A stretch of 64,000 bases of DNA from an uncultured Alphaproteobacteria bacterium (GTDB lineage: Bacteria; Pseudomonadota; Alphaproteobacteria; RF32; CAG-239): the NCBI GenBank assembly GCA_944390375.1, contig CALXPZ010000006.1, forward strand, positions 1,587 to 65,586, given 5' to 3'. The position numbers and the translations under genes are program-made. Below, in pieces: positions 42,425 through 59,892 of this stretch. Positions within the stretch are counted from its first letter, which is position 1, and every line of letters begins with the position of its first letter. The notes under the pieces are model-generated. The model worked only from the letters and a program-made list of their open reading frames with translations. It did not search any database and was not told the DNA's origin.

Positions 42425-43398
42425 TCGTGAGCCGCCCGGCGGATTCGGTCGTTGATGGCCAATCCGAGGCCGCTTTCGGGGATCGGCGCCATGGCAAGCG
42501 TCCGCCCGCCGGCCAAAGCATCGGCCTGCCGCAAAAAAGAAAACAGATTGGCCGCCGCCTCACGCAAATCGCCTTTCGGACTGAGGTTAAGCTCACCGTC
42601 CCTGTCGCCGAAACCGATATAAAGTTCGTTTGCCGCCGGGGTTTCGGCATTGATCCGTAGTTTGTGCCCCGGAGCATAATGACGCAAAAGCTGTCCCGGC
42701 GCGCTTGGCCGGTCCGGTTCACCATGGGAAAGCAGCACCTTTTCATTTAAAAAATCTTCAATATCTTCCAACGTCGTTCCGCCTGCACGGAGCATCACCG
42801 CCTCTTTTCCGGTAACGTCAAGGATGGTCGATTCAACCCCGACTTTGCAGGCGCCGCCGTCCAAAATCATATCCACATTTTCGCCCAGACCGTCATAAAC
42901 ATGTTGCGCCGTCGTCGGGCTGACCGATTTAAACAAATTGGCAGAAGGCGCCACGATCGGCACCCCGCTTTGCCGGATAAGCGCGGCCGCCACCGGATGG
43001 GCGGGCATTCTGACGGTTGCCGTCGGCAATCCCGAGCAGGCCAGATCAACCCCTGCATACTGCCCTTTTCTTTTTAAAACCAAAGTCAGGGGCCCCGGCC
43101 AAAAACGACGCGCCAGCGCCAGCGAACGCTCGTCGGTTTCCACATATTCCGGCAGTGCGTCAAAATCGGCGATATGAGAAATCAGCGGATCAAAAGCCGG
43201 CCGCTTTTTGACCTCAAAAATTTTTGCCACCGCTCTCGCGTCAAACACGTTGGCTCCCAGTCCGTAAACCGTTTCTGTCGGCATGGCCACCAGCCCGCCG
43301 ATCTTGATAACGGCCGCCGCCCGGGCGATATTTTCTTCCGTTGCTTGATAAATGTTGTTCATAAATCTTTCCCGTAAAATAAAATGCCGCGCTTTCAT
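42421..43398 (-). CDS. L-threonylcarbamoyladenylate synthase (Sua5/YrdC/YwlC family, long form with Sua5 C-terminal domain)
   Basis: YrdC-domain motifs (GGLVAMPTETVYGLGANVFDARAVAKIFEVKKRP, SANLF). The 325-aa length indicates a Sua5-type C-terminal extension. Confidence 0.85.
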   Translation of the reverse strand: MKARHFILRERFMNNIYQATEENIARAAAVIKIGGLVAMPTETVYGLGANVFDARAVAKIFEVKKRPAFDPLISHIADFDALPEYVETDERSLALARRFWPGPLTLVLKRKGQYAGVDLACSGLPTATVRMPAHPVAAALIRQSGVPIVAPSANLFKSVSPTTAQHVYDGLGENVDMILDGGACKVGVESTILDVTGKEAVMLRAGGTTLEDIEDFLNEKVLLSHGEPDRPSAPGQLLRHYAPGHKLRINAETPAANELYIGFGDRDGELNLSPKGDLREAAANLFSFLRQADALAGGRTLAMAPIPESGLGLAINDRIRRAAHD

Positions 43399-44495
43399 CG
43401 TCCGCCTTTGCCGCCGCGATGCACGAATTTATCCGGCGTTTTTTCTCTTTTGTTGGCCGGCACCAGCGGCATATACTTATTTGCCAGCAGTTCCACTTTA
43501 TTAACCAGTATAATATTTTCCACCGAAGGGCGAATAACTCCGAAACGGCGTTCCGGAGCAGAAAAGTCATGTTGAATACAGGTTTCAAAATTCAAAATAC
43601 AGGCGGCGTGCTCCGGTACCATTATTTTTTCGAAATAAAGCATATCATCGCAGACCTTTGCCTGTTCAAGCTTATGCAGAAAACGATGAAAACGCTTTTC
43701 GATCAGGCAGAGTTTGTTAAAACTGTTTACCTCGCTCAGACTGGACACGTTGTTCGGCGAATAGACGGGGATGGTATGATGGCGGTCAAATTCCGGCCCT
43801 TCGATTCGTTTGCCGCTTTCGTCAAAAACAACCACATCCCAGGCCTCGCCCGTTTTACGCATTTTTTCCACCAAAGCGTCAGTATATCTCGGATCTACGC
43901 CCCCTTCCGTCAGCATTTGCCGAAACTCGTTTTCCCGGGCGGTGATAAACGTCTTGATAAACGATTTTCGCTCGCGGTAGCGGGCAAACTCCTCTCCGCA
44001 GTTGTTGCGCACAAAATCCCTGAAATCGTTAACCTGCATGGCCTTGATCAAAGCCGGCGGCAGTTGCAGTTCTGCCAGCTTTTCAATCACGACGCTTTCC
44101 ACCGAACGATAAGTCGGAAACTCTCGCATTTCGCTCCACGCCTTGCACTTCTCCAGCGCCTGTTCGTAGACCGACGCGGGATAGCTTTCATTGCCGGCGT
44201 TTTTCAGGGCATAGCGGTAATGAAAAGAAAGAAAATTCTTGTCCACGGCATAAATATCGCCGTTGCAATCGTCGCGGATCAGCATTTTATATTCCGGTGC
44301 AATCGGCCGTTCCGGCGTAATCACGCAGGAATAATTGTTATTGTAAAGATAAAGACGCAACATGTCCCGCAGTTGTTTTTTGGGCTCGCTTTCGGGCAAC
44401 AATGAAAAAACTTTCATTGCCTGATTTAACACACCTTCGGAAAAAGCCAGATATTTCAGCCTTTCCACCATTTCCCGGCGGGCTTTTTTAGACAC
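43395..44495 (-). CDS. hypothetical protein (366 aa) co-transcribed with sua5, with a possible HNH-like motif
   Basis: Overlaps the sua5 start by 4 bp. FDRHHTIPVYSPNN...N..CLIEKRFHRFLH loosely resembles an HNH/His-Me finger arrangement. Basic Gly-rich C-terminus (KFVHRGGKGGR). Family not established. Confidence 0.4.
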   Translation of the reverse strand: MSKKARREMVERLKYLAFSEGVLNQAMKVFSLLPESEPKKQLRDMLRLYLYNNNYSCVITPERPIAPEYKMLIRDDCNGDIYAVDKNFLSFHYRYALKNAGNESYPASVYEQALEKCKAWSEMREFPTYRSVESVVIEKLAELQLPPALIKAMQVNDFRDFVRNNCGEEFARYRERKSFIKTFITARENEFRQMLTEGGVDPRYTDALVEKMRKTGEAWDVVVFDESGKRIEGPEFDRHHTIPVYSPNNVSSLSEVNSFNKLCLIEKRFHRFLHKLEQAKVCDDMLYFEKIMVPEHAACILNFETCIQHDFSAPERRFGVIRPSVENIILVNKVELLANKYMPLVPANKREKTPDKFVHRGGKGGR

Positions 44496-46226: not shown

Positions 46227-47588
46227 TCACATCCGGCTTTGATAATCAACGACAGCTTTCAGGAACTGATCTTCCGCCATATAGCGTCCTTTGGTCAAAA
46301 GCATCGGCGAAACCAAACCTTCGGCAATCAGTTTATACCCCGTATTCAGAGTATTTTCCTGCTGCTGATCATCCCATGCCTTGCCGCTTGCGCCTTCGTC
46401 ATAAGCGTCAATCATCAGCGCACGGACAATCTTAAGAACAGCAGCGACGGTCTCATTTGTACCGCACAGTTCACTGACCACATTCGGATACGAATAAGCC
46501 AAAAACAGCGGAGCCAAAGCTTTGTACTCTTCCGGATAAGTCCCGAGGTTTGGCAAAGCAAAGCGGCTCTTTCCATGTTCGCGGAAAAGATGAGCCACAC
46601 CGTTGGCAAGCGTCAAATCCGCCAGCTGCCCATCATAACCGATTCGGTCATAACTGAAAATCCGCAAATTTTCGGTTATCCGCCGGCCGATATTTTGATC
46701 ATCCACCTTTCCGCTCAGGGCAAATAACCCCTGCGCTGCCGAGACAAAGGCTTTCGGCTCAATGTCGGCAATGCGCACCCAGACGTTTTCAACCTCTTGC
46801 AGCCCGAAAGAAAGCTCCGTTGCCACCCGCATCTGATAGAGAGGATAAGTAACGCAGATCAAGTTGACGTCTTCATCAATATGATAATGCGCCAGCGTTT
46901 CCTTGATCAGAGCAATGTTTTCGGCCGTTGAGGTATCCTTCGGCGTCATCAGCAGTTTGCCGAGCAGTCCTTTGGGAACACCAAGCAACAGCATCTGACG
47001 GAGATACATTCTGTATTCCGAGTTTTTACGAATCTTATATGCCGGGTTAAACTCCGTCATATTTTGATTGTCTTCCAACCCGAGAAACATAATCCCGTCA
47101 GGCAGCGCTTTGTGCATACGGATATAGCAGTACAATGCCTCCGCCGCTTTGGTTGCACTTTCGGGAGCGCCGGAAAAAACCACCAGAATATCCTTACGTC
47201 CGCCTTCCTGTCTGGGAATATGGCGATAGTCATAAGAAACGACGTTTTTGTTTCCGTATCGCAACACTTCGCCTGTATCACCGCGACCAAACCTTTCGGC
47301 CGATGCAATAATCTGCAGTTCTTCTTCCCGCAAACGATAACGGGGAACAGCATACAAAGAAATAGTCTGACGACAAAATTCTTTCTTTTGGTTAAGACTG
47401 CCGTCTCGCGTGTTTAAAACATTAAGCACCCATTTGACGGTTTCTATCCAGTCCTGAAACTCGCGTTCGCTGTGCCCGCGGCGTTCAAAACCGGGAAACG
47501 CAGACATCTCATAATTTACATTTTCACCCATTCTGGCATCTTCTACGATAGCCTGAACCAATCGTTGATAACATGTTATTTTGTTCAT
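46227..47588 (-). CDS. hypothetical protein (453 aa) with a C-terminal YdcF/DUF218-like domain (tentative)
   Basis: DILVVFSGAPESATKAAEAL and TSTAENIALIKETL...NLICVTYPLYQMRVATEL resemble the DUF218 (SanA/ElyC/YdcF) pattern. N-terminal about 120 aa unassigned. Confidence 0.35.
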   Translation of the reverse strand: MNKITCYQRLVQAIVEDARMGENVNYEMSAFPGFERRGHSEREFQDWIETVKWVLNVLNTRDGSLNQKKEFCRQTISLYAVPRYRLREEELQIIASAERFGRGDTGEVLRYGNKNVVSYDYRHIPRQEGGRKDILVVFSGAPESATKAAEALYCYIRMHKALPDGIMFLGLEDNQNMTEFNPAYKIRKNSEYRMYLRQMLLLGVPKGLLGKLLMTPKDTSTAENIALIKETLAHYHIDEDVNLICVTYPLYQMRVATELSFGLQEVENVWVRIADIEPKAFVSAAQGLFALSGKVDDQNIGRRITENLRIFSYDRIGYDGQLADLTLANGVAHLFREHGKSRFALPNLGTYPEEYKALAPLFLAYSYPNVVSELCGTNETVAAVLKIVRALMIDAYDEGASGKAWDDQQQENTLNTGYKLIAEGLVSPMLLTKGRYMAEDQFLKAVVDYQSRM

Positions 47589-47667: not shown

Positions 47668-48906
47668 TCACTCGTCCGGCAACAGTACGGAAAAAACCGA
47701 CCCTTTTCCCGGTGTACTTCTGACTTCGATGCGGCCGCCGTGCCGTTCGACAATTTCCTGTGCGATGGAAAGCCCGAGCCCGGTTCCCGCCGTCTGCCGG
47801 CTGCGGTTTTTATCCGCCCGGTAAAAACGTTCGAAAATATGGGAAATATCTTCCTCGTCAATCCCGATCCCGTGATCTTCAACCTCAATCCGACAGTTCT
47901 TATCCTCGCGGAAAGCACGGACAATCACTTCCGAATGTTCCGGGCTGTATTTAATGGCATTATCCAAAAAAATAAGCAGCAGTCGTCGGATCATTTCCTT
48001 GTCGGCTTTCACCAAAACCTCTTTTCCGCAACCGTTGATAAGCCGGATATCCTTGTGGCTGTTCATATGGGCAAGGGTTCCTTCAATCAACCCGTTAACA
48101 TCAAACAGCTCGCGGTGTAAAATCTGTTGTTTGTTGTCCGCCCGCGCCAGTTCCAGCAAATTTCCTATTAAAGCGGACATACCGAGCACTTCTTCTTTCA
48201 TACCGGCCACAAGCGGTTGTTTGGGATCCGTCATTTCCATCAATTCTATCGAAGACAGCAAAACGGCAAGCGGCGTTCTCAGTTCATGCGACGCATCGGC
48301 AACAAAGCGTTTTTGCCGTTCCAGCAGCACCACCAACGGAGAAATTGTTCTGTCCGCAAGAAAGTTGCCGCAGCCTCTGGCAACCGCCAGCATCAAAAGC
48401 AGTGCGCCGAGCCAGATATAAATATAGCGCCCGGAAAGCAGTTTTAGGGGCGTAACATTCACCAGAATGACCACTTTTCCTTTAGCTGTCCGCCCCGATA
48501 TCATATAAAACTGCCACAAATTATTTTCCTCATCGCGCAGAGAAAAAAACTCCAGCCCGTTTCCCGGTACGGCTTGTACCGCTTTTTCCAAACAAAGTTC
48601 CGCTATTTTCTCGTTTTTTGGATGTTCGGCAAAAACAGGTCTATTGTCTTCAAACCAATAAGCATAGCTGTAAATAGATGAAATATCCGAGACCATCACC
48701 GTTTCTCTGGGGCGGGAAATTTTTCCCATCCCGAAACCTTCCGCTTCCCTGATCTCGGCTGTCAAAGCATCGCGCATTGTATCGGCAATTACTTTATGCA
48801 CCATATATTTGCACATGGTAAAACCGCCGATGACAAAAAACAACAACATTACCGCAATAATGGCCGTGTATTTGTAAGACAGACGGCGCCGTACTTTGTC
48901 AATCAC
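47668..48906 (-). CDS. sensor histidine kinase (two TM helices, HisKA + HATPase_c)
   Basis: H-box ASHELRTPLAV, N-box LLLIFLDNAIKYS, G-boxes VEDHGIGIDEED and GTGLGLSIAQEIV. Confidence 0.85.
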   Translation of the reverse strand: MIDKVRRRLSYKYTAIIAVMLLFFVIGGFTMCKYMVHKVIADTMRDALTAEIREAEGFGMGKISRPRETVMVSDISSIYSYAYWFEDNRPVFAEHPKNEKIAELCLEKAVQAVPGNGLEFFSLRDEENNLWQFYMISGRTAKGKVVILVNVTPLKLLSGRYIYIWLGALLLMLAVARGCGNFLADRTISPLVVLLERQKRFVADASHELRTPLAVLLSSIELMEMTDPKQPLVAGMKEEVLGMSALIGNLLELARADNKQQILHRELFDVNGLIEGTLAHMNSHKDIRLINGCGKEVLVKADKEMIRRLLLIFLDNAIKYSPEHSEVIVRAFREDKNCRIEVEDHGIGIDEEDISHIFERFYRADKNRSRQTAGTGLGLSIAQEIVERHGGRIEVRSTPGKGSVFSVLLPDE

Positions 48907-49598
48907 CGTTCAATCTCCAGAACATAACCGATTCCCTTCACCAGCTTGATTTGCACCTTATCCGTCACTTTTCTGATTTTACGTCGCAAAATGTAAATAT
49001 AAGCATCAAGGCTTGCTGGGCTGATGTCCGGATTGTCTGACCAAACCTTGTCCATAATCGTTTCCCTTAAGATAATCTGCCCGCTGTTGACAAACAAAAT
49101 CTGAAAGACCTCCTGCTCCCGCCGGCTCAGCTTCAACTCATGATCTCCCAGACGCAACACTCCCGTTTTGGCGTTCATCTCAATGCCGAATTTTGTATAA
49201 ACTCCGTCAACGAAAGGCCTGCCTTTACGGCGGCCGAGCGCGTTGACCCGGGCGATCAACACCTTGTTTTCAAACGGCTTAACCAGATAATCGTCGGCGC
49301 CGCTCTCAAGCCCCGCCACGCAATCATCGGTTCCGTCCCTGGCCGTCAAAAAAATGATTCCCCCCTGATAATTATATTTACGCGGATTGCGCAGCAGCCT
49401 GCAAATTTCAATCCCGCTGATCTCGGGCAACATCCAGTCGAGAATAATGACGTCATAGCTGCTGGCCGCGGCTTCATCAATCAGATCCAGTGCCTCTTTT
49501 CCGTCTTTTGCCCATTCGACTTCAAATCCCGAAAGTTCCAACAGGCTTTTGACCAGCCCGCCCAGTTTGAGGTCATCTTCTGCCAATAACAATCTCAT
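48903..49598 (-). CDS. OmpR/PhoB-family response regulator
   Basis: Receiver domain (MRLLLAEDD, DVIILDWMLP with the phospho-acceptor Asp, FLTARD) and a winged-helix C-terminus (LRRKIRK). Overlaps the kinase gene by 4 bp. Confidence 0.9.
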   Translation of the reverse strand: MRLLLAEDDLKLGGLVKSLLELSGFEVEWAKDGKEALDLIDEAAASSYDVIILDWMLPEISGIEICRLLRNPRKYNYQGGIIFLTARDGTDDCVAGLESGADDYLVKPFENKVLIARVNALGRRKGRPFVDGVYTKFGIEMNAKTGVLRLGDHELKLSRREQEVFQILFVNSGQIILRETIMDKVWSDNPDISPASLDAYIYILRRKIRKVTDKVQIKLVKGIGYVLEIER

Positions 49599-50023: not shown

Positions 50024-50689
50024 ATGAACCCGCGTTATATTTACGCCAAACAATCTAAAGTTATGCGTGCTTTGTGGAATTTTCTGACCAGTCCGACCGG
50101 CGCTTTTCTGATTGCCGTCTCTGCCATTCTCATCGGTTATTACCAATTCGACATCAGCCGCCCGATTTTAAAATACACCAGCGAAACAACGGAGATATCT
50201 TCCGCCTCCGGCAGCGACGATTTCAAAATTCACATCAACGGCAAAGATTATCCGAAAATATATAAAACGGAACTGACGCTGACCAATACCGGCGAAGATG
50301 CCCTGCCCGGCAACGATGTCTCGGCCATCGGTCACGACCCGATACGCATTCCCATTCCCCCGCGGGTCAAAGTACTCTACTACGGCATCAGCAGCAGCGG
50401 AACCTCCGAAGATGTCGCCGCCAAACTGATCCCCGTTGATGACGCTCTGGTCATCACTTTCAACTACCTCAACCCCGACAACCAGATTACCGTTCACATG
50501 TACAGCGAAGACGATTACGACAACTACGAAATAAAAGGATCCGCCGTTAACGTCAACCAGATAACACAGGCTTGGAGTCCCGAACAAACCCGCCGTTTTA
50601 TTATCCGCATCGCTCTCGGCATCATCCTTTTCTATACCCTGTTTATATACCTCTATGTCCGGCGGCATAAACCGTTGCCCCGGATATAA
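50024..50689 (+). CDS. hypothetical membrane protein (221 aa; TM helix at each end)
   Basis: No family assigned. Confidence 0.4.
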   Translation: MNPRYIYAKQSKVMRALWNFLTSPTGAFLIAVSAILIGYYQFDISRPILKYTSETTEISSASGSDDFKIHINGKDYPKIYKTELTLTNTGEDALPGNDVSAIGHDPIRIPIPPRVKVLYYGISSSGTSEDVAAKLIPVDDALVITFNYLNPDNQITVHMYSEDDYDNYEIKGSAVNVNQITQAWSPEQTRRFIIRIALGIILFYTLFIYLYVRRHKPLPRI

Positions 50690-50736: not shown

Positions 50737-51345
50737 TTATAAATCGGCAACCACGGAAACGGAAACGATCTCGTCCGGCTCGCTGACCATACCGTTGGCG
50801 CCGGTACCGCGTTTGATCATATCGACATATTCCATCCCGGAAGTAACCTCACCCCACACCGTATATTGGCCGTTAAGCCACGGTGCCTCGGCAAAGCAAA
50901 TAAAAAACTGGCTGTCTGCGGAATCCAGATCCATCGCGCGGGCCATCGAAACCGTGCCTCTCAGATGCGGCCGGCGGTTAAATTCCGCTTTCAGTTTTTT
51001 GCCGCTGCCGCCGGTTCCGGTACCGTAAGGACACCCGGTCTGAGCCATAAAGCCGTCAATTACCCGGTGAAACTTCAAGCCGTTGTAAAAACCGGCCCGC
51101 ACCAACTCCTTGATCCGTGCGACATGGTTCGGCGCGTCTTCGGGAAACATCTCAATCACGACATCGCCGTTTTTCAGTTTCAAGACCAAAGCATTTTCGG
51201 CATCTTTAACCAGATATTTGGCTTTTTCTTTTTTTGAACGCGACGGGCTTTTGGTCAGTTTTTTCGTTTCCGCGGATTTCAACCCTTTGGTTTCAGCCTT
51301 GGCCAGTTTCGCCGTTTCTGCTTTTTTCAACAATTCAGCCATCAT
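50737..51345 (-). CDS. cyclophilin-type peptidyl-prolyl cis-trans isomerase with a lysine-rich N-terminal extension
   Basis: Cyclophilin core (FHRVIDGFMAQTGCPYGTGTGGSG, VSMARA, SQFFICF, WLNGQYTVWGEVTSGMEYVDMI) preceded by about 45 aa of AETAKLAKAETKGLKSAETKKLTKSPSRSKKEKA. Confidence 0.85.
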   Translation of the reverse strand: MMAELLKKAETAKLAKAETKGLKSAETKKLTKSPSRSKKEKAKYLVKDAENALVLKLKNGDVVIEMFPEDAPNHVARIKELVRAGFYNGLKFHRVIDGFMAQTGCPYGTGTGGSGKKLKAEFNRRPHLRGTVSMARAMDLDSADSQFFICFAEAPWLNGQYTVWGEVTSGMEYVDMIKRGTGANGMVSEPDEIVSVSVVADL

Positions 51346-51405: not shown

Positions 51406-52383
51406 TTACTTCAGAACATAATCAACCCGTTCGGACCATGTCAGCCCTTTGGGATAGTAGTTGCGAATTCTTTTTAACAAATCACGCAACCCGCAGCCGT
51501 TGGCAATTTGGATTGCCAACCCCGGCCGGGCATTCAGTTCCAGCATCATCGGCCCGCGGTATTTGTCAAGCACGATATCCGCCCCCAGATACCCCAATCC
51601 GGTCATTTCATATCCTTTGGCCGCAATTTCCAGATGCTCCCGCCAAAAAGGAACCTGCAATTTCATCAGATCGGCGCCGGTGTCAGGATGAAAACTGATC
51701 GGCCGGTTATGCGATACCGCAGCCACCGCACACCCGCTCTTAATGTCAATGCCGACACCTACCGCGCCTTGATGCAGGTTTGCCCTACCACCCGATTCTT
51801 TGGTTGCCAGACGCATCATCGCCATGGCCGGAAACCCTTGGTAGACAATCACCCGCACATCGGGAATCCCCTGATAACTGAAATCTTGGAATTGGTTTGA
51901 AAAGTGAACCATCTCTTCCAGCACGGCCACGTCATACTTTCCGCCGAGGGAATAAAGTCCGCTCAAAATATTGGAAATATGCTGATAGACCTCGTGATAA
52001 GACAGCACTTTTTCCGACGCGGTTACAAACTGTTTTTCATCATAGCTCTTAATCACCAGCACACCTTTGCCGCCGCTGCCGTGTGCCGGCTTGATCACAA
52101 ATTCCTTATAACCTTCCACCAGCGACAAAAAACGATCCACTTCATTTTGCACATCTATCACACCGATCAAATGCGGCGTATTGATTCCCACGCCGGCGGC
52201 CAGTTTTTTGGTTTGTACTTTGTCATCAACCAGCGGATAAAGCCGTCTGCGGTTACTTTTGGCAATAATTTCATAATTGCGCCGGTTCATACCGAGCACA
52301 CCGGCCTCTCTCAACTGCGACGGCGTGGCAAAATGTTTCAAAAAATCAAACATGTTTTTCGTCCTTTTTCGCCAGCGGAGCAA
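51406..52383 (-). CDS. RimK-family alpha-L-glutamate ligase-like ATP-grasp protein (alternative start at MFDFLKH, 52353)
   Basis: ATP-grasp motifs (FVIKPAHGSGGKGVLVI, MLELNARPGLAIQ). N-terminal GVLGMNRRNYEII is typical of the 'alpha-L-glutamate ligase-like' family that co-occurs with the two downstream genes. Confidence 0.75.
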   Translation of the reverse strand: MLRWRKRTKNMFDFLKHFATPSQLREAGVLGMNRRNYEIIAKSNRRRLYPLVDDKVQTKKLAAGVGINTPHLIGVIDVQNEVDRFLSLVEGYKEFVIKPAHGSGGKGVLVIKSYDEKQFVTASEKVLSYHEVYQHISNILSGLYSLGGKYDVAVLEEMVHFSNQFQDFSYQGIPDVRVIVYQGFPAMAMMRLATKESGGRANLHQGAVGVGIDIKSGCAVAAVSHNRPISFHPDTGADLMKLQVPFWREHLEIAAKGYEMTGLGYLGADIVLDKYRGPMMLELNARPGLAIQIANGCGLRDLLKRIRNYYPKGLTWSERVDYVLK

Positions 52384-53887
52384 AACGTGTCAGTTCCGTC
52401 AGGCGGTAACCGGTATAAGTGCCGAGCAGCATAACGATAAACAAAATAACCAGATTGAATTCGTTAAACGCAAACATAATATGGCGAATATATTCATTGA
52501 CGATTACAAAATAGGTAATAATCGCCACCAACACGCTGTAAACGATTTCTTTGGTCGCATTGGCCGCTCCGTCTTCCTCCCAGGTAATGGATGCCCGTTC
52601 GATAACCCAAGCCATAATGATAATCGGGAAAGAAAGAGCCGATACGGCAATATTCCATTTCCATTGATAACCGATGACAGACAGCACCTGCATAATCAGA
52701 ATAACAAAAATAACCACCGCCGAAATCCGCGGAACCAGCAACAGATTAAGCTTTGACAACCCGGCTCTGATCAGCAGACCGGCGCCCAAAATCAGCGAAA
52801 AGCAAATCAGTCCCGGCCAAAATCCGGTCTTAACCAACGACATGGCGATCAGCATCGGTGTGAACGTCCCCATGGTCTGGATACCGACCACATTGCGCAT
52901 CAGTACGACGACCAAAATTGCAAGCGGAAAAATCATCAACCATTTCAATGTGTTCTGTTCATTAAGCGGCAGATTGTAAATTGAATAATTAAACAAGCTG
53001 CGGCTGTGTGAAAGCTCCGCACGATGTCCGGCCATCCGGAATGAAGAACGGATCGACTTCATAACCGAAAACTTGGTAACGGAATCCGTACCGCCTTCCA
53101 CATCGACCAGAGAGTTTCCGCCGCGCTGAAAGATAATAAAATTGCTCGGCACGCCTTTTTTACCGGTTTCCAGATTATAAATCTTCCACATTCCGTCAAT
53201 ATAAGCCTCGAGCATCACATCGGGCATAAGCGTTTTTTTGCCTTCTGTCAGCTTTATGCCTCGCACCATCCGCGCCGAGATGTCTTTTAAGGCCAGCAAA
53301 TCAATCACGGCCTGAGCCGTTGCCTTGTCGGTGCGGGGAGAAGGAACAAAAGACTGCACCGTTTCGTCCGGCGGATTTTGATTAAACAGGGCAATCACCT
53401 GCTGGATCGGATCGCCTTCCCGCTGTGCGGCCATTTCCAACAGTTGTCCGGCAACAACGGAAGTTTGCTCATCCATAATTGGTTTCTGCGGCGCCGAAGG
53501 CTTTTCGGCCGGTGTTTTTCCCCTGCTGTCAACATTATCGTAAAGGAGCACACGGTAGTAGATATCCTGCAGCTTGCTTTTCGGTTTGGAGGTAATTTCT
53601 ATTCGTTCCGTTTTCTTTTCTATTTTATATTTCGGCGCCACCGCATCTTCGTCCAACACCTTAAAACCGGCCGTAGACAGCGGTCTGGCCATGGACACGC
53701 GGATATTGCTCCCGTTTGGCATAAAACTGACATGTTCCTCCACCGTCCACACGTCCGTCGTTTGCTTAGGGGTAAAATTAAATCCCCAATAACGAATTTT
53801 ATAATAAGCGGCATAGCCTGCAAATGCTATTGACAGAACCAAACCGACGGTTAAAAAAAATCTCACGGATTTCAATTTGTTTAACAT
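52346..53887 (-). CDS. inactive transglutaminase-like domain fused to a C-terminal 7TM domain (513 aa)
   Basis: N-terminal TM/signal anchor, a periplasmic transglutaminase-like region, and a C-terminal block of about 7 TM helices (LMIFPLAILVVVLM...). This is the known partner of RimK-like ligases. Confidence 0.65.
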   Translation of the reverse strand: MLNKLKSVRFFLTVGLVLSIAFAGYAAYYKIRYWGFNFTPKQTTDVWTVEEHVSFMPNGSNIRVSMARPLSTAGFKVLDEDAVAPKYKIEKKTERIEITSKPKSKLQDIYYRVLLYDNVDSRGKTPAEKPSAPQKPIMDEQTSVVAGQLLEMAAQREGDPIQQVIALFNQNPPDETVQSFVPSPRTDKATAQAVIDLLALKDISARMVRGIKLTEGKKTLMPDVMLEAYIDGMWKIYNLETGKKGVPSNFIIFQRGGNSLVDVEGGTDSVTKFSVMKSIRSSFRMAGHRAELSHSRSLFNYSIYNLPLNEQNTLKWLMIFPLAILVVVLMRNVVGIQTMGTFTPMLIAMSLVKTGFWPGLICFSLILGAGLLIRAGLSKLNLLLVPRISAVVIFVILIMQVLSVIGYQWKWNIAVSALSFPIIIMAWVIERASITWEEDGAANATKEIVYSVLVAIITYFVIVNEYIRHIMFAFNEFNLVILFIVMLLGTYTGYRLTELTRFAPLAKKDEKHV

Positions 53888-53907
53888 GAAAGCCTCGCCA
53901 TAATCTT

Positions 53908-54483
53908 TTAACGCAGCGTATTGCTCAAAGAAGCATCAACCACAAACCGCCCGGTCAGAATATTGCGGCCGATCAGTCCCTGATAATTAAAACGGTCGCG
54001 TTTTGCCAGCGAAAACTCCGCTTTCACGATTTCCTCACCCATTTTAATATCCATAACGACGACGATACGTTCTTCGTTACCGTTGATTCGCTTAACGGTC
54101 GGCTGACGTTTTATTTTTTTCTCAAAATGGTATTTTTCGCCGGTTTCCCGATTAACCAGATCAAAGCCGACCCATTTTTCACCGTCGCGTTCAAACGGGC
54201 GAATGTCATCGGCATCAACCGAAGATGTTTCGGCTCCGGTATCTATCCGCGATGAAAACGGAGATTTCATCGGCAGAAAATAAATCGGCTCCACTTCCCC
54301 GATCACCTTAAGCGGCACTTTCAACTGTCGTTGTTCGGATTTTTCGTTGGCGGTTTCAGGCATTCTGACCTCCACTCCCGGCACGATTGCAGGACGAATA
54401 CTGCCCTGATTTTGGCATGCGGCACACAGGCACAACAAAAAAAGTGCCGTCATTTTTTTTACAATATCAGCCATGTTTCTCAT
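53908..54483 (-). CDS. retropepsin-like aspartic peptidase ('ATP-dependent zinc protease' COG4067 family), secreted/lipoprotein
   Basis: Signal peptide with Cys (FLLCLCAAC). Retropepsin signature IDTGAETSSV. 191 aa. Confidence 0.7.
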   Translation of the reverse strand: MRNMADIVKKMTALFLLCLCAACQNQGSIRPAIVPGVEVRMPETANEKSEQRQLKVPLKVIGEVEPIYFLPMKSPFSSRIDTGAETSSVDADDIRPFERDGEKWVGFDLVNRETGEKYHFEKKIKRQPTVKRINGNEERIVVVMDIKMGEEIVKAEFSLAKRDRFNYQGLIGRNILTGRFVVDASLSNTLR

Positions 54484-54636
54484 ATCTTGTTAAAACTGTT
54501 TCTTATTTATCTTTAAATGCAGAAAAAAGTAAAGTAAAAAAAATTCCGCTGTGATCACTTTTTTAATGACTTTTGTCCTAAAAAAAGTTATATTGTACAA
54601 AAATAAGAATAAAAATCAGAATCCGAAGAGAAGACC

Positions 54637-55644
54637 ATGCCGCAGACCTCAAACAAAGCCGCTAAAATATTAAAAATAAAAGTCCGCAAAAATATTTATC
54701 GGATGAAAAAATATCTGCTCGGACTGACAACGCTCGGCGCCGTGATTTCCGCGCCTGCCGGCCTGCACGGACAGGAAGCGGGCAACTTCGGGCAAACTCA
54801 GGAACAAACCGCTGCCGGCAAAAAAATGTCCGCAGAAAAAACCGGCGACAAACTGCTGGCCTATAACCGCATGGTTGAAGTCAACCTCGGACAGGAAATC
54901 GAAAACCGGGCGGATTGGTTCGTCGACGAGTTCGTGAAAGCCTCTTCCAAACATCTGACAGCGCTAAAAAAGGCCACCGCTCGTGGACAAAAAACAAGTT
55001 ATGTCGAAAACAATTTTTTTGACATTGTTTACCCGTCCGGTCATCTCTCCGGTCGCAACAACTACTGCATCACGGCCATCAACCGGGCGTTGATCGATGC
55101 CAATGTATTCGGCGACCTCAACGGCGCCCTGCCCGAATACAAAAGCGAAGGAGGCAACGCCGTCGAATGCCGGCGTTTTGTCAGCTACCTTGAAAGAAAA
55201 GGCTACCGCGACTGCATCCGCCACGGTGCAATCAACATAAAAAATCTGCAAATCGGAGACATTGTCATGACACCCCGCGGAGGCGGACGCTATCACGCCA
55301 CCATCTACATCGGCAACGGCGTTGTTCGCAGTTTTAACAACGACGGAGAATGGTTGCTGAAAAAACGCAGCGGCATTGTCATAAAAACCAAAGCCATCGC
55401 CGAAAAAGCAATTACGCAGAAACTTGAAAAACAAAAGCTGGTCAATCTGCAAAAAGGCAAAAGGCAAATTGTTCCCTTGCAAAAAGCTCAAAAAATCATG
55501 CAGTTTTTATACGCCGGGCGTAATGTCGGCGACAGAATGGTGGCCTTACTGCTGGACAACGACCGTGGCAATTTGCTGGCTTCCGCCTCCATTCCGGCAG
55601 AAAAATTTTCACGCCGGCAGCTGACGGAAATCCGCGGTCGGTAA
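54637..55644 (+). CDS. secreted hypothetical protein, possibly a papain-fold (NlpC/P60 / CHAP-like) hydrolase
   Basis: Signal peptide (MKKYLLGLTTLGAVISAPAGLHG from an internal Met). The Cys in NNYCITAIN and the His in GGGRYHATIYIGNG have the spacing of a Cys/His papain-fold dyad. Tentative. Confidence 0.35.
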   Translation: MPQTSNKAAKILKIKVRKNIYRMKKYLLGLTTLGAVISAPAGLHGQEAGNFGQTQEQTAAGKKMSAEKTGDKLLAYNRMVEVNLGQEIENRADWFVDEFVKASSKHLTALKKATARGQKTSYVENNFFDIVYPSGHLSGRNNYCITAINRALIDANVFGDLNGALPEYKSEGGNAVECRRFVSYLERKGYRDCIRHGAINIKNLQIGDIVMTPRGGGRYHATIYIGNGVVRSFNNDGEWLLKKRSGIVIKTKAIAEKAITQKLEKQKLVNLQKGKRQIVPLQKAQKIMQFLYAGRNVGDRMVALLLDNDRGNLLASASIPAEKFSRRQLTEIRGR

Positions 55645-55648
55645 CCGC

Positions 55649-56875
55649 CTAAAAAAAGAAACTGGCGCGCAGGCTGATAACCGTACCGTAATCGGATTTC
55701 GTGTTCAACGCCGGATCGATATAAAACTGGATATCCGGCGTAATTGTCATCCATTTTGAAATACCGAAGGCATAATAAGCCTCAACCACTTTTTCGCTGT
55801 CATGGGAAAGCTTTTCACCGACGGCCGCCTCGTCAATTTTGTTATAGGCAAAGGCCAGTCCGGCCTGATCCAGCGGATTGCGGTCAAACGGATCGTTGTA
55901 CACCAGGCCGAGCACCCACGATTGTTCAATTTCAGCAATCGAACCGGAAACACCGTTTACCCGTGCAAACACGGCCAGTTTTTTGCCGATATTCTGACTC
56001 AGATTGACCGACCAGCCGTTGGTTGTCTGCGGCTGTTCTTTGACCCGGGGCTGATTATAAATCAAAACCGAATACCGCCCGGCTCCCAGTCCTTTGATCA
56101 TCGGAGTATAGGCCAAATAACCGAAAGTGGCGTAATGTTCTTCGCTCAAATCATTGACACGGACGCTTATCCCGTCGACATTAGTGGCATCCTGCGCACC
56201 GAAAGCAAACGACCATTCGTCAGTAGGGGTAATTTGAGCATAAGCGCCGACACCTGCCGTCGAATAAGTCGAACTGCCGTTTTGCGACAAAGCATAGTTG
56301 ATAAAATTGACCTGTTGGTTAGAATTATACGGTCCGCCGTCAAAGTTGGAAAACGAAAACTGACCGGCGGCAACCGTCAGCCATTTCAGGGAACCGCCGA
56401 ACTGATAATCATAATACAATTCGCTGAACGAATTTGCCTTATCATCATTATCGTTAATTTCCGTTGCCACACCGATATTGCTGCCGACCCTGGCCGCATC
56501 CGAACCGCCGTAACGGGCAACCGTGTAGGCAAAATTAAGCGTACCTGTACCATGGTCATTGTCAAACATTGTCCAGGTAAAACTTGGAGAAATCAACGTC
56601 TGATAAGCGGTTTTCCGTCCGTTCGGCGCTCCCCGCTGCGGCATATAGGAAATATCAACGGCATAATCAAAACCGTATTCTTTGCTCAGATAATTTTTAA
56701 AAGCGGTATAATCATCGCCGAAAGTGCTGAACGTAAAATTGCGCCGACGGGAAGCCTCCTCCACCCTTCGCTCCGCCCCTTGCGGCAAATCATCGCTGTC
56801 CGCACGGGCTTCCAAAGAATGGCTGATGACCAACGCACCCCAAAAAAACGGCAGTACATAATTTCTGATTTTCAT
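55649..56875 (-). CDS. aaxA: OprB-family (carbohydrate-selective-type) outer-membrane porin, AaxA-like
   Basis: Signal peptide, amphipathic beta-strand pattern throughout, C-terminal ...ISLRASFFF with a terminal Phe. OprB-like family features. Divergently adjacent to the arginine decarboxylase/antiporter pair. Confidence 0.65.
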   Translation of the reverse strand: MKIRNYVLPFFWGALVISHSLEARADSDDLPQGAERRVEEASRRRNFTFSTFGDDYTAFKNYLSKEYGFDYAVDISYMPQRGAPNGRKTAYQTLISPSFTWTMFDNDHGTGTLNFAYTVARYGGSDAARVGSNIGVATEINDNDDKANSFSELYYDYQFGGSLKWLTVAAGQFSFSNFDGGPYNSNQQVNFINYALSQNGSSTYSTAGVGAYAQITPTDEWSFAFGAQDATNVDGISVRVNDLSEEHYATFGYLAYTPMIKGLGAGRYSVLIYNQPRVKEQPQTTNGWSVNLSQNIGKKLAVFARVNGVSGSIAEIEQSWVLGLVYNDPFDRNPLDQAGLAFAYNKIDEAAVGEKLSHDSEKVVEAYYAFGISKWMTITPDIQFYIDPALNTKSDYGTVISLRASFFF

Positions 56876-57050: not shown

Positions 57051-57632
57051 ATGACCGAAGGCGTTCGTTACCCGACATTAGCATTTCAAACCGGCGGAGC
57101 CGGACAGGCCGACGAGGGCATTCCCCCGCAACCGTTTGAAACTTTTTGTTACGATTCCGCCCTGTTGCAGGCCAAAATCGAAAATTTTAACGTCATCCCT
57201 TACACGTCGGTTTTGCCCAAAGAACTCTACGGCAACATTGTTCCGGTCGACAAAGTTGTCAACCAGTTTAAGCACGGTGCGGTGCTGGAAGTCATCATGG
57301 CTGGCAACGGCGCCAATCGCGACCAGCACAAGGCCATCGCCACCGGCGTCGGCATTTGCTGGGGCAAAAACAAAAAAGGCGAATTGATCGGCGGCTGGGC
57401 GGCCGAATATGTCGAATATTTCGACACCTACATTGACGACGATATTGCCAAAACCCATTGCGAAATGTGGCTGAACCGCTCTTTGAACCACGAACTGCAA
57501 ATCCGCGGCGTTGAAAAACACAGCGAATTTCAGCTCTTCCACAATTATATCAATATCACGCAGCAGTTTGGCTATTGCCTTACCTGTCTTGGTTTCCTTA
57601 ACTTTGAACACGCGGAACCGGCCAGGGTATAA
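57051..57632 (+). CDS. aaxB: pyruvoyl-dependent arginine decarboxylase (PvlArgDC), AaxB-like
   Basis: The 193-aa protein aligns nearly end to end with chlamydial AaxB as recalled: [62 protein letters not shown]...[10 protein letters not shown]...[25 protein letters not shown]...[29 protein letters not shown]. The predicted self-cleavage site Thr52-Ser53 is conserved in PYT|SVLP. Confidence 0.85.
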
Positions 57633-57773: not shown

Positions 57774-59249
57774 ATGACAAAAAAAAACAAACCTTCTGTA
57801 ACAGAAACATCGACCGCCACCGGTAACGGCCTCGGTGTTTTGGCCTTGGCCGCAATCGTTGTCAGCTCCATGATCGGCGGCGGTATCTATTCCCTGCCGC
57901 AAAACATGGCCGCCGGCGCCTCGGCGGGAGCCGTTCTGCTTTCCTGGGTTATTACCGGTTTCGGTGTTTATTTTATTGCCAACACCTTCCGCGTCCTTTC
58001 GGTTGCCATGCCGGATCTGACCGCCGGCATTTATATGTACAGTCGAGAAGGTTTCGGCCCCTATGTCGGCTTTACCATCGGCTGGTCATACTGGCTTTGC
58101 CAGATCTGCGGCAATGTCGGCTACGCCGTTATCACCATGGATGCGCTCAACTACTTTTTCCCGTCTCACTTTGCAGGCGGCAACAACCTTGCCTCCGTCA
58201 TCGGCGGATCAATTTTGATCTGGGGCTTCAACTTTCTGATTTTGCGCGGCATCAAACAGGCCACTCTCGTCAACACCATCGGCACCGTTGCCAAAATCGT
58301 GCCGCTGATACTGTTTATCATCATTCTGATCTTTGTTTTCCACATGGACAGATTCGATTTTAACTTCTGGGGAGAAAAGACAAAATCACTCGGCGGGCTC
58401 GAACAACAGATAAAAAGCACAATGCTGGTTACTTTATGGGCTTTTATCGGCATTGAAGGCGCGGTCGTTATGTCCAAGCACGCCAAAAGCCCGCAGACCG
58501 TCGGCAGAGCAACGCTGCTTGGCTTTATCGGTTGTCTGTCCATCTACATTCTGCTCTCATTGTTACCTTTCGGCTACATGGATCAGACCGAACTGGCTGC
58601 CGTTGCCAACCCGTCCACGGCCGGTATTTTGGAAAAAGTGATCGGCAAACCGGGAGCCTGGCTGATGAACATCGGTCTGCTGATTTCTGTTTTATCCAGC
58701 TGGCTTGCCTGGACCATGATCACTGCCCAAATTCCGCAGGCCGCGGCCGAAAACGGAACTTTTCCGAAAGAATTTGCCAAAGAAAACGAATATCAGGCGC
58801 CTTCCGTTTCGCTGTGGATTACAAGCGCCCTGATGCAGGCAATGATTTTGCTTGTTTATTTTTCAAACAACGCATGGAACACCATGCTCAGCATCACCAG
58901 CGTCATGGTTTTGCCGGCATATTTCTCCAGTTGCGCCTACCTATGGAAAATCTGCGAAGACGGAGAATATCCCGCCCACTCCGACATCAAACGCTCTACC
59001 GCGCTTTTCTCGGCAATTATCGGCTCGTTTTACGCCCTTTGGCTGATTTATGCAGCCGGCCTCAACTATCTGCTGATGGCCGTCATCTTTATGGCTGCCG
59101 GTATCCCGGTTTTTATCTGGGCGCGCAAACAATCCGCACCGGACGAAAACGCTTTTACCATCGGCGAAAAGGCTTTTGCCGGGTTGATGATCGTAATCGC
59201 CTTGTGGGCAATTTACGCTTTCTCCCGCGGCATTGTCAGCCTGAACTGA
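57774..59249 (+). CDS. aaxC: APC-family arginine/agmatine (ArcD/AdiC/AaxC-like) antiporter
   Basis: 12-TM amino-acid/polyamine antiporter (GNGLGVLALAAIVVSSMIGGGIYSLPQNMA..., FGPYVGFTIGWSYWL). 491 aa. Immediately downstream of aaxB. Confidence 0.8.
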   Translation: MTKKNKPSVTETSTATGNGLGVLALAAIVVSSMIGGGIYSLPQNMAAGASAGAVLLSWVITGFGVYFIANTFRVLSVAMPDLTAGIYMYSREGFGPYVGFTIGWSYWLCQICGNVGYAVITMDALNYFFPSHFAGGNNLASVIGGSILIWGFNFLILRGIKQATLVNTIGTVAKIVPLILFIIILIFVFHMDRFDFNFWGEKTKSLGGLEQQIKSTMLVTLWAFIGIEGAVVMSKHAKSPQTVGRATLLGFIGCLSIYILLSLLPFGYMDQTELAAVANPSTAGILEKVIGKPGAWLMNIGLLISVLSSWLAWTMITAQIPQAAAENGTFPKEFAKENEYQAPSVSLWITSALMQAMILLVYFSNNAWNTMLSITSVMVLPAYFSSCAYLWKICEDGEYPAHSDIKRSTALFSAIIGSFYALWLIYAAGLNYLLMAVIFMAAGIPVFIWARKQSAPDENAFTIGEKAFAGLMIVIALWAIYAFSRGIVSLN

Positions 59250-59397: not shown

Positions 59398-59892
59398 TCA
59401 ATCGAGCAAACGCTTGAAATCAGAACCGTTTCCCCAGCCCTCCAGCTCAAAATGAGCAACCGCGGCAGAAAAGATATCCTGAAAATAAAATACCTTATTT
59501 TCGGCATTATAGTAGCGTTTATACAGGCGATAACGGCGATAATGGCTTATCCAATACCCAATTCCTTTCGCCCTTAGCTGTTTCATCCTTTCCCGGCAAC
59601 GTTTCAGAAAAGAAATTCTGGTTATAAAGAATCTTCTCATCCGATAATCCGGTTCAAAAACAACCGTTTCCTTCAGCAACACCCAGTCTATGTTCAAATC
59701 GGGATAAGAGGACAGCAAAGGAGGCGTTTCGAACGGATCTGCCGCTCCGCCCAAAGGATCCATGAATGAACGCAGACAAAGAAGCTGCCGGATGCATTCA
59801 GAAAACTTGGAAACAAAGCGCTCTTTGTTCTTTTCTTCCAAAAGGGAGCCGATTTCTTCCAGCTCGCTTAAAAAAAATATACATTGTCTCAT
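59398..59892 (-). CDS. hypothetical protein (164 aa) downstream of and probably co-transcribed with the 807-aa secreted protein
   Basis: ORF 60 bp downstream on the same strand. Basic Tyr/Arg-rich C-terminal half. No family assigned. Confidence 0.35.
   Translation of the reverse strand: MRQCIFFLSELEEIGSLLEEKNKERFVSKFSECIRQLLCLRSFMDPLGGAADPFETPPLLSSYPDLNIDWVLLKETVVFEPDYRMRRFFITRISFLKRCRERMKQLRAKGIGYWISHYRRYRLYKRYYNAENKVFYFQDIFSAAVAHFELEGWGNGSDFKRLLD

Follow-up and report, generated by a model that had tools for sequence, protein, structure and literature searches.

What holds an ATP-grasp ligase, a membrane protein with a transglutaminase-like domain and an aspartic peptidase together as one block of genes, and does that block have a known function? 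The question is raised by positions 51406-54483 of a 64,000-nucleotide (nt) stretch of contig CALXPZ010000006.1 from an uncultured alphaproteobacterium (the whole stretch is referred to here as the window), where a first-pass annotation had read three co-directional, overlapping or adjacent genes of this kind and had called them a recurrent neighborhood with no assigned function. The layout is as described: three minus-strand open reading frames (ORFs; 54483..53908, 53887..52346 and 52383..51406) fill the interval exactly, with 191, 513 and 325 amino acids (aa), the third counted from a TTG at 52383. Based on family matches, a full-length alignment to the RloB model, matches to RloA orthologues in the PDB and the A-B-C gene order, we identify this triad as very probably orthologous to rloABC of Pseudomonas aeruginosa. 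The system itself is already known; what is new here is a divergent branch of it in a lineage outside the published work.

The lack of an assigned function is an outdated description. In 2025, the operon was named rloA-rloB-rloC in P. aeruginosa PA14 (PA14_41690/41710/41730), with phenotypes and one in vitro activity, its products being a secreted retropepsin-like peptidase, an inactive-transglutaminase/seven-transmembrane (7TM) protein and an ATP-grasp protein (Lormand et al., mBio 2025; PMC12239564). RloA of P. fluorescens and RloA2 of P. aeruginosa crystallized as dimers with the DTG motif at the interface and a basic channel, and RloA cuts runs of at least eight glutamates in vitro (PMC12239564). 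The delta-rloA1-3 mutant dies in salt-free (hypo-osmotic) lysogeny broth (LB) and is impaired in biofilm formation, beta-lactam tolerance and cell shape, and deletion of rloB or of rloC fully rescues growth and relieves these defects; the native RloA substrate was not found in P. aeruginosa (PMC12239564). That paper covers Gammaproteobacteria and leaves Alphaproteobacteria unmentioned (PMC12239564). Apart from it, our search for newer rlo literature found only one Shewanella study, in which disruption of an RloB homologue led to more membrane vesicles.

Profile hidden Markov model searches of Pfam and NCBIfam bore out all three family assignments. RloA of the window matches PF05618 (E 1.4e-28), RloB matches PF14400 (E 1.4e-23) and PF14402 (E 2.1e-81), and RloC matches PF14397 (E 1.3e-86), with weaker RimK-type ATP-grasp matches, as well as TIGR02291, "alpha-L-glutamate ligase-like", at 413.8 bits, above the cutoff of 314.2. 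The original comparative-genomics description of these families is said to be that of Iyer et al. in 2009. NCBIfam now holds models for RloA1, RloA2, RloA3, RimB and RloB; RloB, RloA and RloA2 are of the "exception" type, and RloA3 is an equivalog. The match to its "osmotic stress tolerance membrane protein RloB" reaches 259.3 bits against a cutoff of 900, in an alignment that is full-length on both sides. For RloA, the matches to RloA3, RimB, RloA2 and RloA all fall under the strict cutoffs, the best being RloA3 with 99.9 bits against 210. Among PDB sequences, RloA matches 9g59 and 9g58, two RloA-family entries (E about 1e-11), and 2pma.

How widely is the triad kept? Homologues of RloB number 1372 at E below 1e-5 in a clustered protein database, the named ones being labeled "MAG Alphaproteobacteria bacterium" (MAG, metagenome-assembled genome). 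An RloB scan of one genome per species gave 304 loci, of which the best 80 were kept and searched by tblastn with the window proteins. These 80 come nearly all from MAGs of uncultured Alphaproteobacteria, Proteobacteria, "Azospirillum sp." and Candidatus Scatocola, with one labeled Bacteroidaceae; where a source is stated, it is a human, rumen, mouse or chicken gut metagenome. With RloB identities of 58-91%, all 80 carry RloA and 78 carry RloC, the two misses being truncated loci, and the order is A-B-C on one strand throughout. The claimed recurrence in Proteobacteria extends from these untruncated loci to Legionella adelaidensis, where plasmid 5 carries the A-B-C triad with overlapping genes (RloB identity 30.6%), and to an Aeromonas caviae record (A-B-C, RloB identity 34%). 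Three metagenomic loci found via distant RloC homologues show A-B-C in two cases and B-C without an adjacent A in one. The linkage of rloA, rloB and rloC is far beyond chance. A HMMER search of 1.84 billion cluster representatives returned 1628 relatives of RloB (360 at E 1e-30 or better), almost uniformly 500-530 aa long. With clustering at 60% identity, one representative stands for the whole window clade, and the nearest other cluster lies at 45% identity; the clade is therefore a separate branch within a family of moderate size and uniform architecture. The window holds no additional copy of rloA, rloB or rloC.

Turning to the individual proteins, the catalytic DTGA motif of RloA is present in all 79 aligned RloA sequences. 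Basic positions are likewise kept, namely R79 (78/79), R126 (R or K, 73/79), R139 (79/79) and R162 (79/79), and they line up with the poly-Glu-coordinating K46, R92, R114 and R137 of P. aeruginosa RloA, a mapping made by offset from the catalytic Asp and accurate within about 2 residues. The N-terminus consists of a KK n-region, a hydrophobic core and LCAAC, whose Cys23 is kept in 77 of the 79 sequences in the context L-[SA]-[AG]-C in most orthologues and LGGC in Aeromonas. RloA of this lineage is therefore described here as a predicted lipoprotein, with Cys23 as the putatively lipidated first residue of the mature form, so that the "secreted" peptidase of the first-pass annotation keeps its signal peptide and is refined to a predicted lipid-anchored one. 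After the Cys follows a linker (RPAIVPGVEV) in which P31 is conserved in 72/79 and P35 in 73/79, the motif being visible in most N-termini. A start at Met41, which has GGAGG just upstream and was chosen in a public gene call, was rejected: the upstream peptide and lipobox are conserved as protein and Met41 is not, and the conservation of P31 and P35 disfavors it further. In that public call of the window's RloA (locus L090, 697-1152, +), the lipoprotein signal is lost. Going by the orthologues, the ATG at 54474 (M4) is suggested as the actual start of rloA. Mature RloA of the window contains no Cys, and most clade members among the aligned sequences have none beyond the signal peptide; the disulfide of periplasmic Pseudomonas orthologues is therefore absent. 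Compared with the Pseudomonas enzymes, the flap is also smaller, by about 10 residues. The disulfide-forming Cys pair is a feature of periplasmic RloA orthologues and not a requirement for activity (PMC12239564).

RloB comprises a first transmembrane (TM) helix, a beta-sandwich, an alpha/beta domain and a helical bundle, as modeled by AlphaFold2 (predicted local distance difference test, pLDDT, 78.6; predicted template modeling score, pTM, 0.57). The sole significant PDB fold match in Foldseek is transglutaminase-like 3isr (E 1.6e-8), nothing credible was returned for the 7TM part, and a search of PDB sequences gave no match even at E up to 1. Consistent with the earlier claim of an inactive transglutaminase, the catalytic triad is not retained. 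The only Cys of RloB is C362, in a TM helix, leaving aa 1-361 Cys-free, and 70 RloB homologues share neither a conserved Cys within aa 29-305 nor a conserved His within the transglutaminase-like part, aa 136-300; in a by-eye motif alignment with one PF01841 protein, the Cys-His-Asp positions are occupied by Ala, Asp223 and Asn238. Judged by its sequence, this domain is catalytically dead. The 7TM half is the most conserved part of RloB (mean column identity 0.82 vs 0.63-0.66), and its conserved loops 331-345, 378-388 and 430-447, together with the tail 489-505, are predicted by our own topology count to lie on the cytoplasmic side.

RloC shows no signal peptide or TM segment in its sequence. 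Its AlphaFold2 model (pLDDT 89.8) has RimK as best fold match (5zct, labeled "poly-alpha-L-glutamate peptides synthetase", E 8.6e-12), followed by cyanophycin synthetase and ArgX/LysX. These enzymes all extend a C-terminal carboxylate. Residues of the ATP/Mg site (K98, G104-G105-x-G107, E156, N202-L-H204, D269, E282 and N284) are invariant in 82 bacterial and archaeal sequences. As for its start, the ATG at 52353, with AAGGA upstream, is likely to be used rather than the TTG of the ORF call at 52383. Starting there, rloC shares 8 nt with the end of rloB (ATGTTTGA), an overlap also present in the independent gene call of a public assembly carrying an identical RloB, and a gap of 20 nt separates the rloA stop from the rloB ATG.

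Window and P. aeruginosa systems thus compare closely in their three domain architectures, gene order and predicted compartments (exported peptidase, inner-membrane RloB, cytoplasmic RloC), in the DTGA and basic channel residues of RloA, in the lost triad of RloB and in an RloC that passes TIGR02291. They differ in that the host here is a gut alphaproteobacterium, RloA carries a lipobox, lacks the disulfide pair and is shorter in its flap, and a lysine-tailed cyclophilin follows rloC in this clade. Phenotypes and poly-Glu cleavage were demonstrated in P. aeruginosa; the present data establish the identity, order and coupling of the genes, their intact catalytic motifs and the lost triad.

A further view of the two membrane-side components comes from archaea. 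Through a tblastn match, we found on Halobacterium sp. DL1 plasmid CP007061.1 an unannotated 584-aa ORF (locus L083, 3824-5578, +) that carries PF14402 at aa 51-243 followed by PF14397 at aa 286-557. This fusion occurs in about 70 protein clusters, the named ones all haloarchaeal, with genera including Haloarcula, Natronorubrum, Natrarchaeobius, Salinigranum, Halomarina and further haloarchaea. The fusions of Halobacterium sp. DL1, Haloarcula salina and Natronorubrum sediminis share with RloB and RloC the C-terminal and ligase Pfam modules and have identical ligase catalytic residues, but form one polypeptide, and in the two loci examined there is neither a transglutaminase-like domain nor an adjacent retropepsin. 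The same search gave a second fusion group of about 540 aa. In GCA_028279645.1 (locus L084, 2140-7699, +), a member of this group is the middle one of three overlapping genes, which encode a 954-aa prenyltransferase/terpene-cyclase-toroid protein, the 541-aa 7TM and ATP-grasp fusion and a 365-aa membrane-anchored PF01841 protein with Ser-His-Asp in place of Cys-His-Asp; it is a permuted version of the 7TM/ligase/transglutaminase association. An S8 peptidase is also encoded nearby, on the opposite strand. Because of the fusions, the 7TM module and the ligase appear as the invariant core, and the transglutaminase-like scaffold and the peptidase as additions. In the fusions, the 7TM module takes the place of the acceptor-binding N-domain of other ATP-grasp ligases. 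Coupling of B and C is thus backed by the 8-nt overlap, by about 70 fusion clusters and by the B-C locus without an adjacent A. Polymers of glutamate or glutamine occur in some haloarchaea (Natrialba, Natronococcus), and we know of no synthase genes for them.

Which process would connect the three proteins? In the mechanism that we favor, RloC, with its intact ATP/Mg site, would build an alpha-linked glutamate-rich chain, either free or attached to an acceptor, from a docking site on the RloB 7TM module, at its conserved cytoplasmic face. RloB would pass or present the anionic product at the periplasmic side, its Cys-less transglutaminase-like domain acting as a binding scaffold and not as an enzyme. 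The chain would then be cut by RloA, here a dimer of the retropepsin type that is anchored through its lipid and has a basic channel for the substrate; left uncut in the absence of RloA, the product would build up and the envelope would fail at low osmolarity. To this full sequence of synthesis, passage and trimming we would give an even chance. What we infer is the making of poly-Glu by RloC, its translocation by RloB and the occurrence of any of these steps in this organism. The polyglutamate modification and export role proposed in the first-pass annotation agrees with the leading hypothesis.

Several observations weigh against this account or against its transfer to the present lineage. 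RloA and RloB stay under their NCBIfam cutoffs, and RloB of this clade shares only about 30-34% identity with those of Gammaproteobacteria that were compared; every phenotype comes from a gammaproteobacterium. Without the disulfide and with a shorter flap, RloA could have a different specificity here. Its lipoprotein status and the RloB topology were assigned by inspection and conservation and not by a dedicated predictor, the pTM of the RloB model is low (0.57), and the transport role of RloB is an extrapolation because its 7TM fold has no solved relative. The activity of RloC is a predicted one, and PF14397 is named "sugar-transfer associated", which leaves room for acceptors of other kinds.

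A bolder proposal goes beyond this mechanism, and we put it forward tentatively, as one that we think unlikely. According to it, a 7TM module and an RloC-type ATP-grasp domain would form a new kind of membrane-embedded polymer synthase-exporter, in which the membrane module replaces the N-terminal acceptor-binding domain and an alpha-glutamate chain is fed straight across. If true, the fused haloarchaeal form would be the minimal machine, to which Proteobacteria added a dead transglutaminase scaffold and a retropepsin, metering a periplasmic polyanion for the osmotic behavior of the envelope.

Several known systems resemble rloABC in part. RimK and RimB, which with RimA serve poly-glutamylation of S6, are likewise an alpha-L-glutamate ligase of the ATP-grasp type and a poly-Glu peptidase, the latter retropepsin-like and from the Pfam family of RloA. 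However, RimB is cytoplasmic and no membrane component is involved, whereas the window peptidase has a signal peptide; RloA scores 63.9 bits against the RimB model (NF052261, cutoff 200), and RloC scores 24.9 bits against 331 (NF007764) and 48.4 against 143.4 (TIGR00768) with the RimK models. RloC also lacks an N-terminal domain of RimK length, with about 50 helical residues ahead of the ATP-grasp core as compared to about 96 in RimK. Newer precomputed Pfam labels call PF05618 "RimB-like", and the Legionella RloA homologue (locus L081, 4513-4971, +), a PF05618 peptidase, is mislabeled "RimK/LysX family protein". In PgsBCA/CapBCA with CapD/PgdS, an ATP-dependent amide ligase facing the cytoplasm is bound to membrane partners, which extrude an anionic glutamate polymer that an extracytoplasmic hydrolase trims. 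This is a works-like analogy only, since PgsB is of the Mur-ligase type and not ATP-grasp and its polymer is gamma-linked, and the window proteins matched none of these families in the Pfam and NCBIfam scans. In P. aeruginosa, rimB has no genetic interaction with the rloA genes, and most organisms with rlo genes are described as having rimK/rimB too (PMC12239564). The Anbu operon combines an ATP-grasp protein, alphaE, a transglutaminase-like protein and the Anbu peptidase, with a proposed role in peptide tagging (PMC6376114). Like rloABC, it is a gene group conserved in bacteria that brings together a ligase of the ATP-grasp type, a transglutaminase-like protein and a peptidase, but it is entirely cytoplasmic, uses an Ntn-hydrolase peptidase and a different ATP-grasp subfamily, and has no 7TM module.

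The alternative that survives best is a reversible modification, in which RloC adds a glutamate tail to a defined acceptor, RloB carries or exposes the tagged molecule and RloA removes the tail in the periplasm; the acceptor might be a protein that is exported or resides in the envelope, a precursor of peptidoglycan or one linked to a lipid, or else a small-molecule cofactor. We regard it as possible and somewhat doubtful. RimB removes the RimK tail from RpsF, and the RimK-family enzymes MptN and CofF act on cofactors. The nearest folds of RloC (RimK, LysX/ArgX) modify the C-terminus of a specific carrier protein, and RloC weakly matches the MptN model (42.3 bits), both of which would suit a defined acceptor. 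Yet the conserved block encodes no candidate for one; the C-terminus of RloB is neither conserved nor acidic, and no reading frame of the window contains an acidic (Glu/Asp) run of at least 6. Nor do the haloarchaeal fusion loci L083 and L086 have a neighboring transglutaminase-like or peptidase gene, a short ORF following the fusion in both. The P. aeruginosa work leaves both options open, with cell-shape and beta-lactam phenotypes that suggest a link to the cell wall, but its proteome search revealed no periplasmic poly-Glu protein, and one acidic candidate was left uncut (PMC12239564).

RloB could also act as a sensor, its pseudo-enzyme domain binding an envelope ligand shaped by RloA and its 7TM module switching an RloC with a cytoplasmic target. 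A dead enzyme domain joined to a multi-pass membrane module is a common receptor design. The regulatory setting is in keeping with such a role, as the V. cholerae operon is under the cell-wall-damage system VxrAB and P. aeruginosa RloA2 sits with CreBC (PMC12239564). We nevertheless consider this improbable: a periplasmic poly-Glu protease and a cytoplasmic poly-Glu-type ligase would then be linked by coincidence only, and full suppression by delta-rloC is explained more simply if RloC makes the RloA substrate. The two-component system near the operon (47668-49598), rejected as its regulator, is conserved in only 5-9 of the 80 loci.

More improbable still is that RloC amidates the carboxylate of a sugar or polysaccharide with an amino acid and that the triad decorates a surface or periplasmic glycan. 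The name of PF14397, "sugar-transfer associated ATP-grasp", and an OprB-family carbohydrate-type porin upstream in 62/80 loci would fit such a role, but no glycosyltransferase or polysaccharide gene occurs in the conserved block or in the Legionella or metagenomic loci, the porin synteny is confined to one order and could be inherited gene order, and the hydrolase of the triad is a peptidase that has been shown to prefer poly-Glu (PMC12239564). Finally, that three unrelated genes are neighbors through chance or recent ancestry is effectively refuted. Common ancestry could account for part of the shared order in the 80 related loci, whose RloB proteins are 58-91% identical, but Gammaproteobacteria with RloB identities of 30-34% have this order and overlapping genes as well, a fusion of two of the three modules exists in archaea, and all three genes interact genetically in P. 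aeruginosa (PMC12239564).

The three genes probably form one transcription unit, as their order on a single strand and the gaps of 20 and -8 nt suggest. Upstream of rloA lies a promoter-like element (Table 1), and in an alignment of 13 regions upstream of rloA the pattern TTTTTTT.CTTTAC..TT.......TTT.....TAAAT is kept in at least 80% of sequences, which makes it a candidate promoter. A generic promoter and terminator consensus scan gave sites no more frequent than in shuffled sequence (10 vs 9.5; 11 vs 11.3), did not single out this element and found no terminator-like site after rloC. Because of this, the limits of the operon rest on gene spacing and one conserved upstream motif. Further upstream, at 54541-54570 (-), is the motif GTCATTAAAAAAGTGATCACAG, which holds the palindrome GTGATCAC. 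It is identical in the closest locus and nearly identical in several other close relatives, TGTCATTAAAAA is still present in more distant ones, and it may be a regulator binding site.

Table 1 Positions of the rloABC genes, their domains and motifs, and adjacent elements in the window
Feature	Position	Strand	Description
rloA	53908..54483	-	Retropepsin-like aspartic peptidase, 191 aa from first ATG
Signal peptide of RloA (putative)	54415..54483	-	Lipobox-like LCAAC, Cys23 codon 54417..54415; by inspection and conservation
Post-lipobox linker motif, RloA aa 29-40	54364..54399	-	IRPAIVPGVEVR; by conservation
Catalytic DTGA motif, RloA aa 81-84	54232..54243	-	By sequence reading
rloB	52346..53887	-	Membrane protein, 513 aa
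RloB TM helix 1	aa 6-28	-	Part of rloB
RloB periplasmic beta-sandwich and Cys-less transglutaminase-like domain (predicted), aa 35-300	52988-53785	-	
RloB 7TM module, aa 301-513	52349-52987	-	
rloC	51406..52353	-	Cytoplasmic ATP-grasp ligase (predicted), 315 aa from ATG at 52353
Promoter-like element upstream of rloA	54505..54534	-	CTTTAC, 18 nt, ATAAAT; T-run in front
Cyclophilin-type peptidyl-prolyl isomerase	50737..51345	-	PF00160, E 1.4e-41; 60 nt downstream of rloC

Of the genes around the operon, the cyclophilin is the most constant. In 74/80 loci it follows rloC in the same orientation, and in 66 of these 74 the two genes are 14-138 nt apart. Neither the Legionella locus nor any of L087, L088 and L089, the three metagenomic loci for which genes were called, has it, and it is a possible co-transcribed neighbor outside the cross-class core. 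Its conserved N-terminal extension of about 50 aa is 19-32% lysine with ETKKL-like repeats and has no signal peptide. That a polycationic cyclophilin tail is encoded beside a putative polyanion synthase is intriguing. In one of the distant metagenomic loci (L087, 5782-6936, +), an MscS-family mechanosensitive channel is encoded two genes downstream of rloABC, an anecdotal neighbor in keeping with the osmotic phenotype.

On the other side of rloA, the porin mentioned above, which is OprB/AaxA-like, belongs to an aaxABC-like arginine decarboxylation module (55649-56875, -; 57051-57632, +; 57774-59249, +). It is an OprB-family protein nearest to chlamydial AaxA (301 bits, under the cutoff of 600) and is divergent from the other two genes, which encode a pyruvoyl-dependent arginine decarboxylase and an amino-acid antiporter-like membrane protein, the latter assigned without a family-library scan. 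AaxB is 90-96% identical where RloB is only 67-88%. The porin persists where aaxB and aaxC do not, these being present in 16/80 loci, and a linkage of aaxB and aaxC to the rlo operon was rejected on this count. Between the module and the operon lies a divergent gene (54637-55644, +) that shares a 153-nt AT-rich intergenic region with rloA. It has weak matches to NlpC/P60 (E 8e-4) and LRAT (E 6.5e-3), both under cutoffs, and its putative signal peptide begins at an internal Met; present in 30/80 loci at 25-76% identity, it is fast-evolving.

Four further ORFs of 453, 366, 221 and 164 aa (46227-47588, -; 43395-44495, -; 50024-50689, +; 59398-59892, -) gave no Pfam match at the thresholds used. 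The 221-aa ORF, situated between the cyclophilin and the two-component system, is hydrophobic near both ends and is found in closer relatives only. An anti-phage role of the operon was rejected, as RloA, RloB and RloC had no PADLOC match at E up to 0.01. GC skew is below zero in all 2-kb bins of the window, 1-64000 (-0.05 to -0.25), and since it is negative throughout, no replication origin or terminus lies inside.

In conclusion, our findings extend rloABC beyond Gammaproteobacteria to a large clade of uncultured gut Alphaproteobacteria. All 80 genomes that similarity to RloB brought up have the operon, which argues for a general need of the envelope and not one specific to Pseudomonas. The comparative data also sharpen the biochemical question, by pointing to the 7TM module and the ligase as the core and to a peptidase that can be a lipoprotein without a disulfide. 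In P. aeruginosa, the RloBC product is tied to antibiotic tolerance and biofilm formation, and the archaeal fusion may offer a way to probe what that product is.

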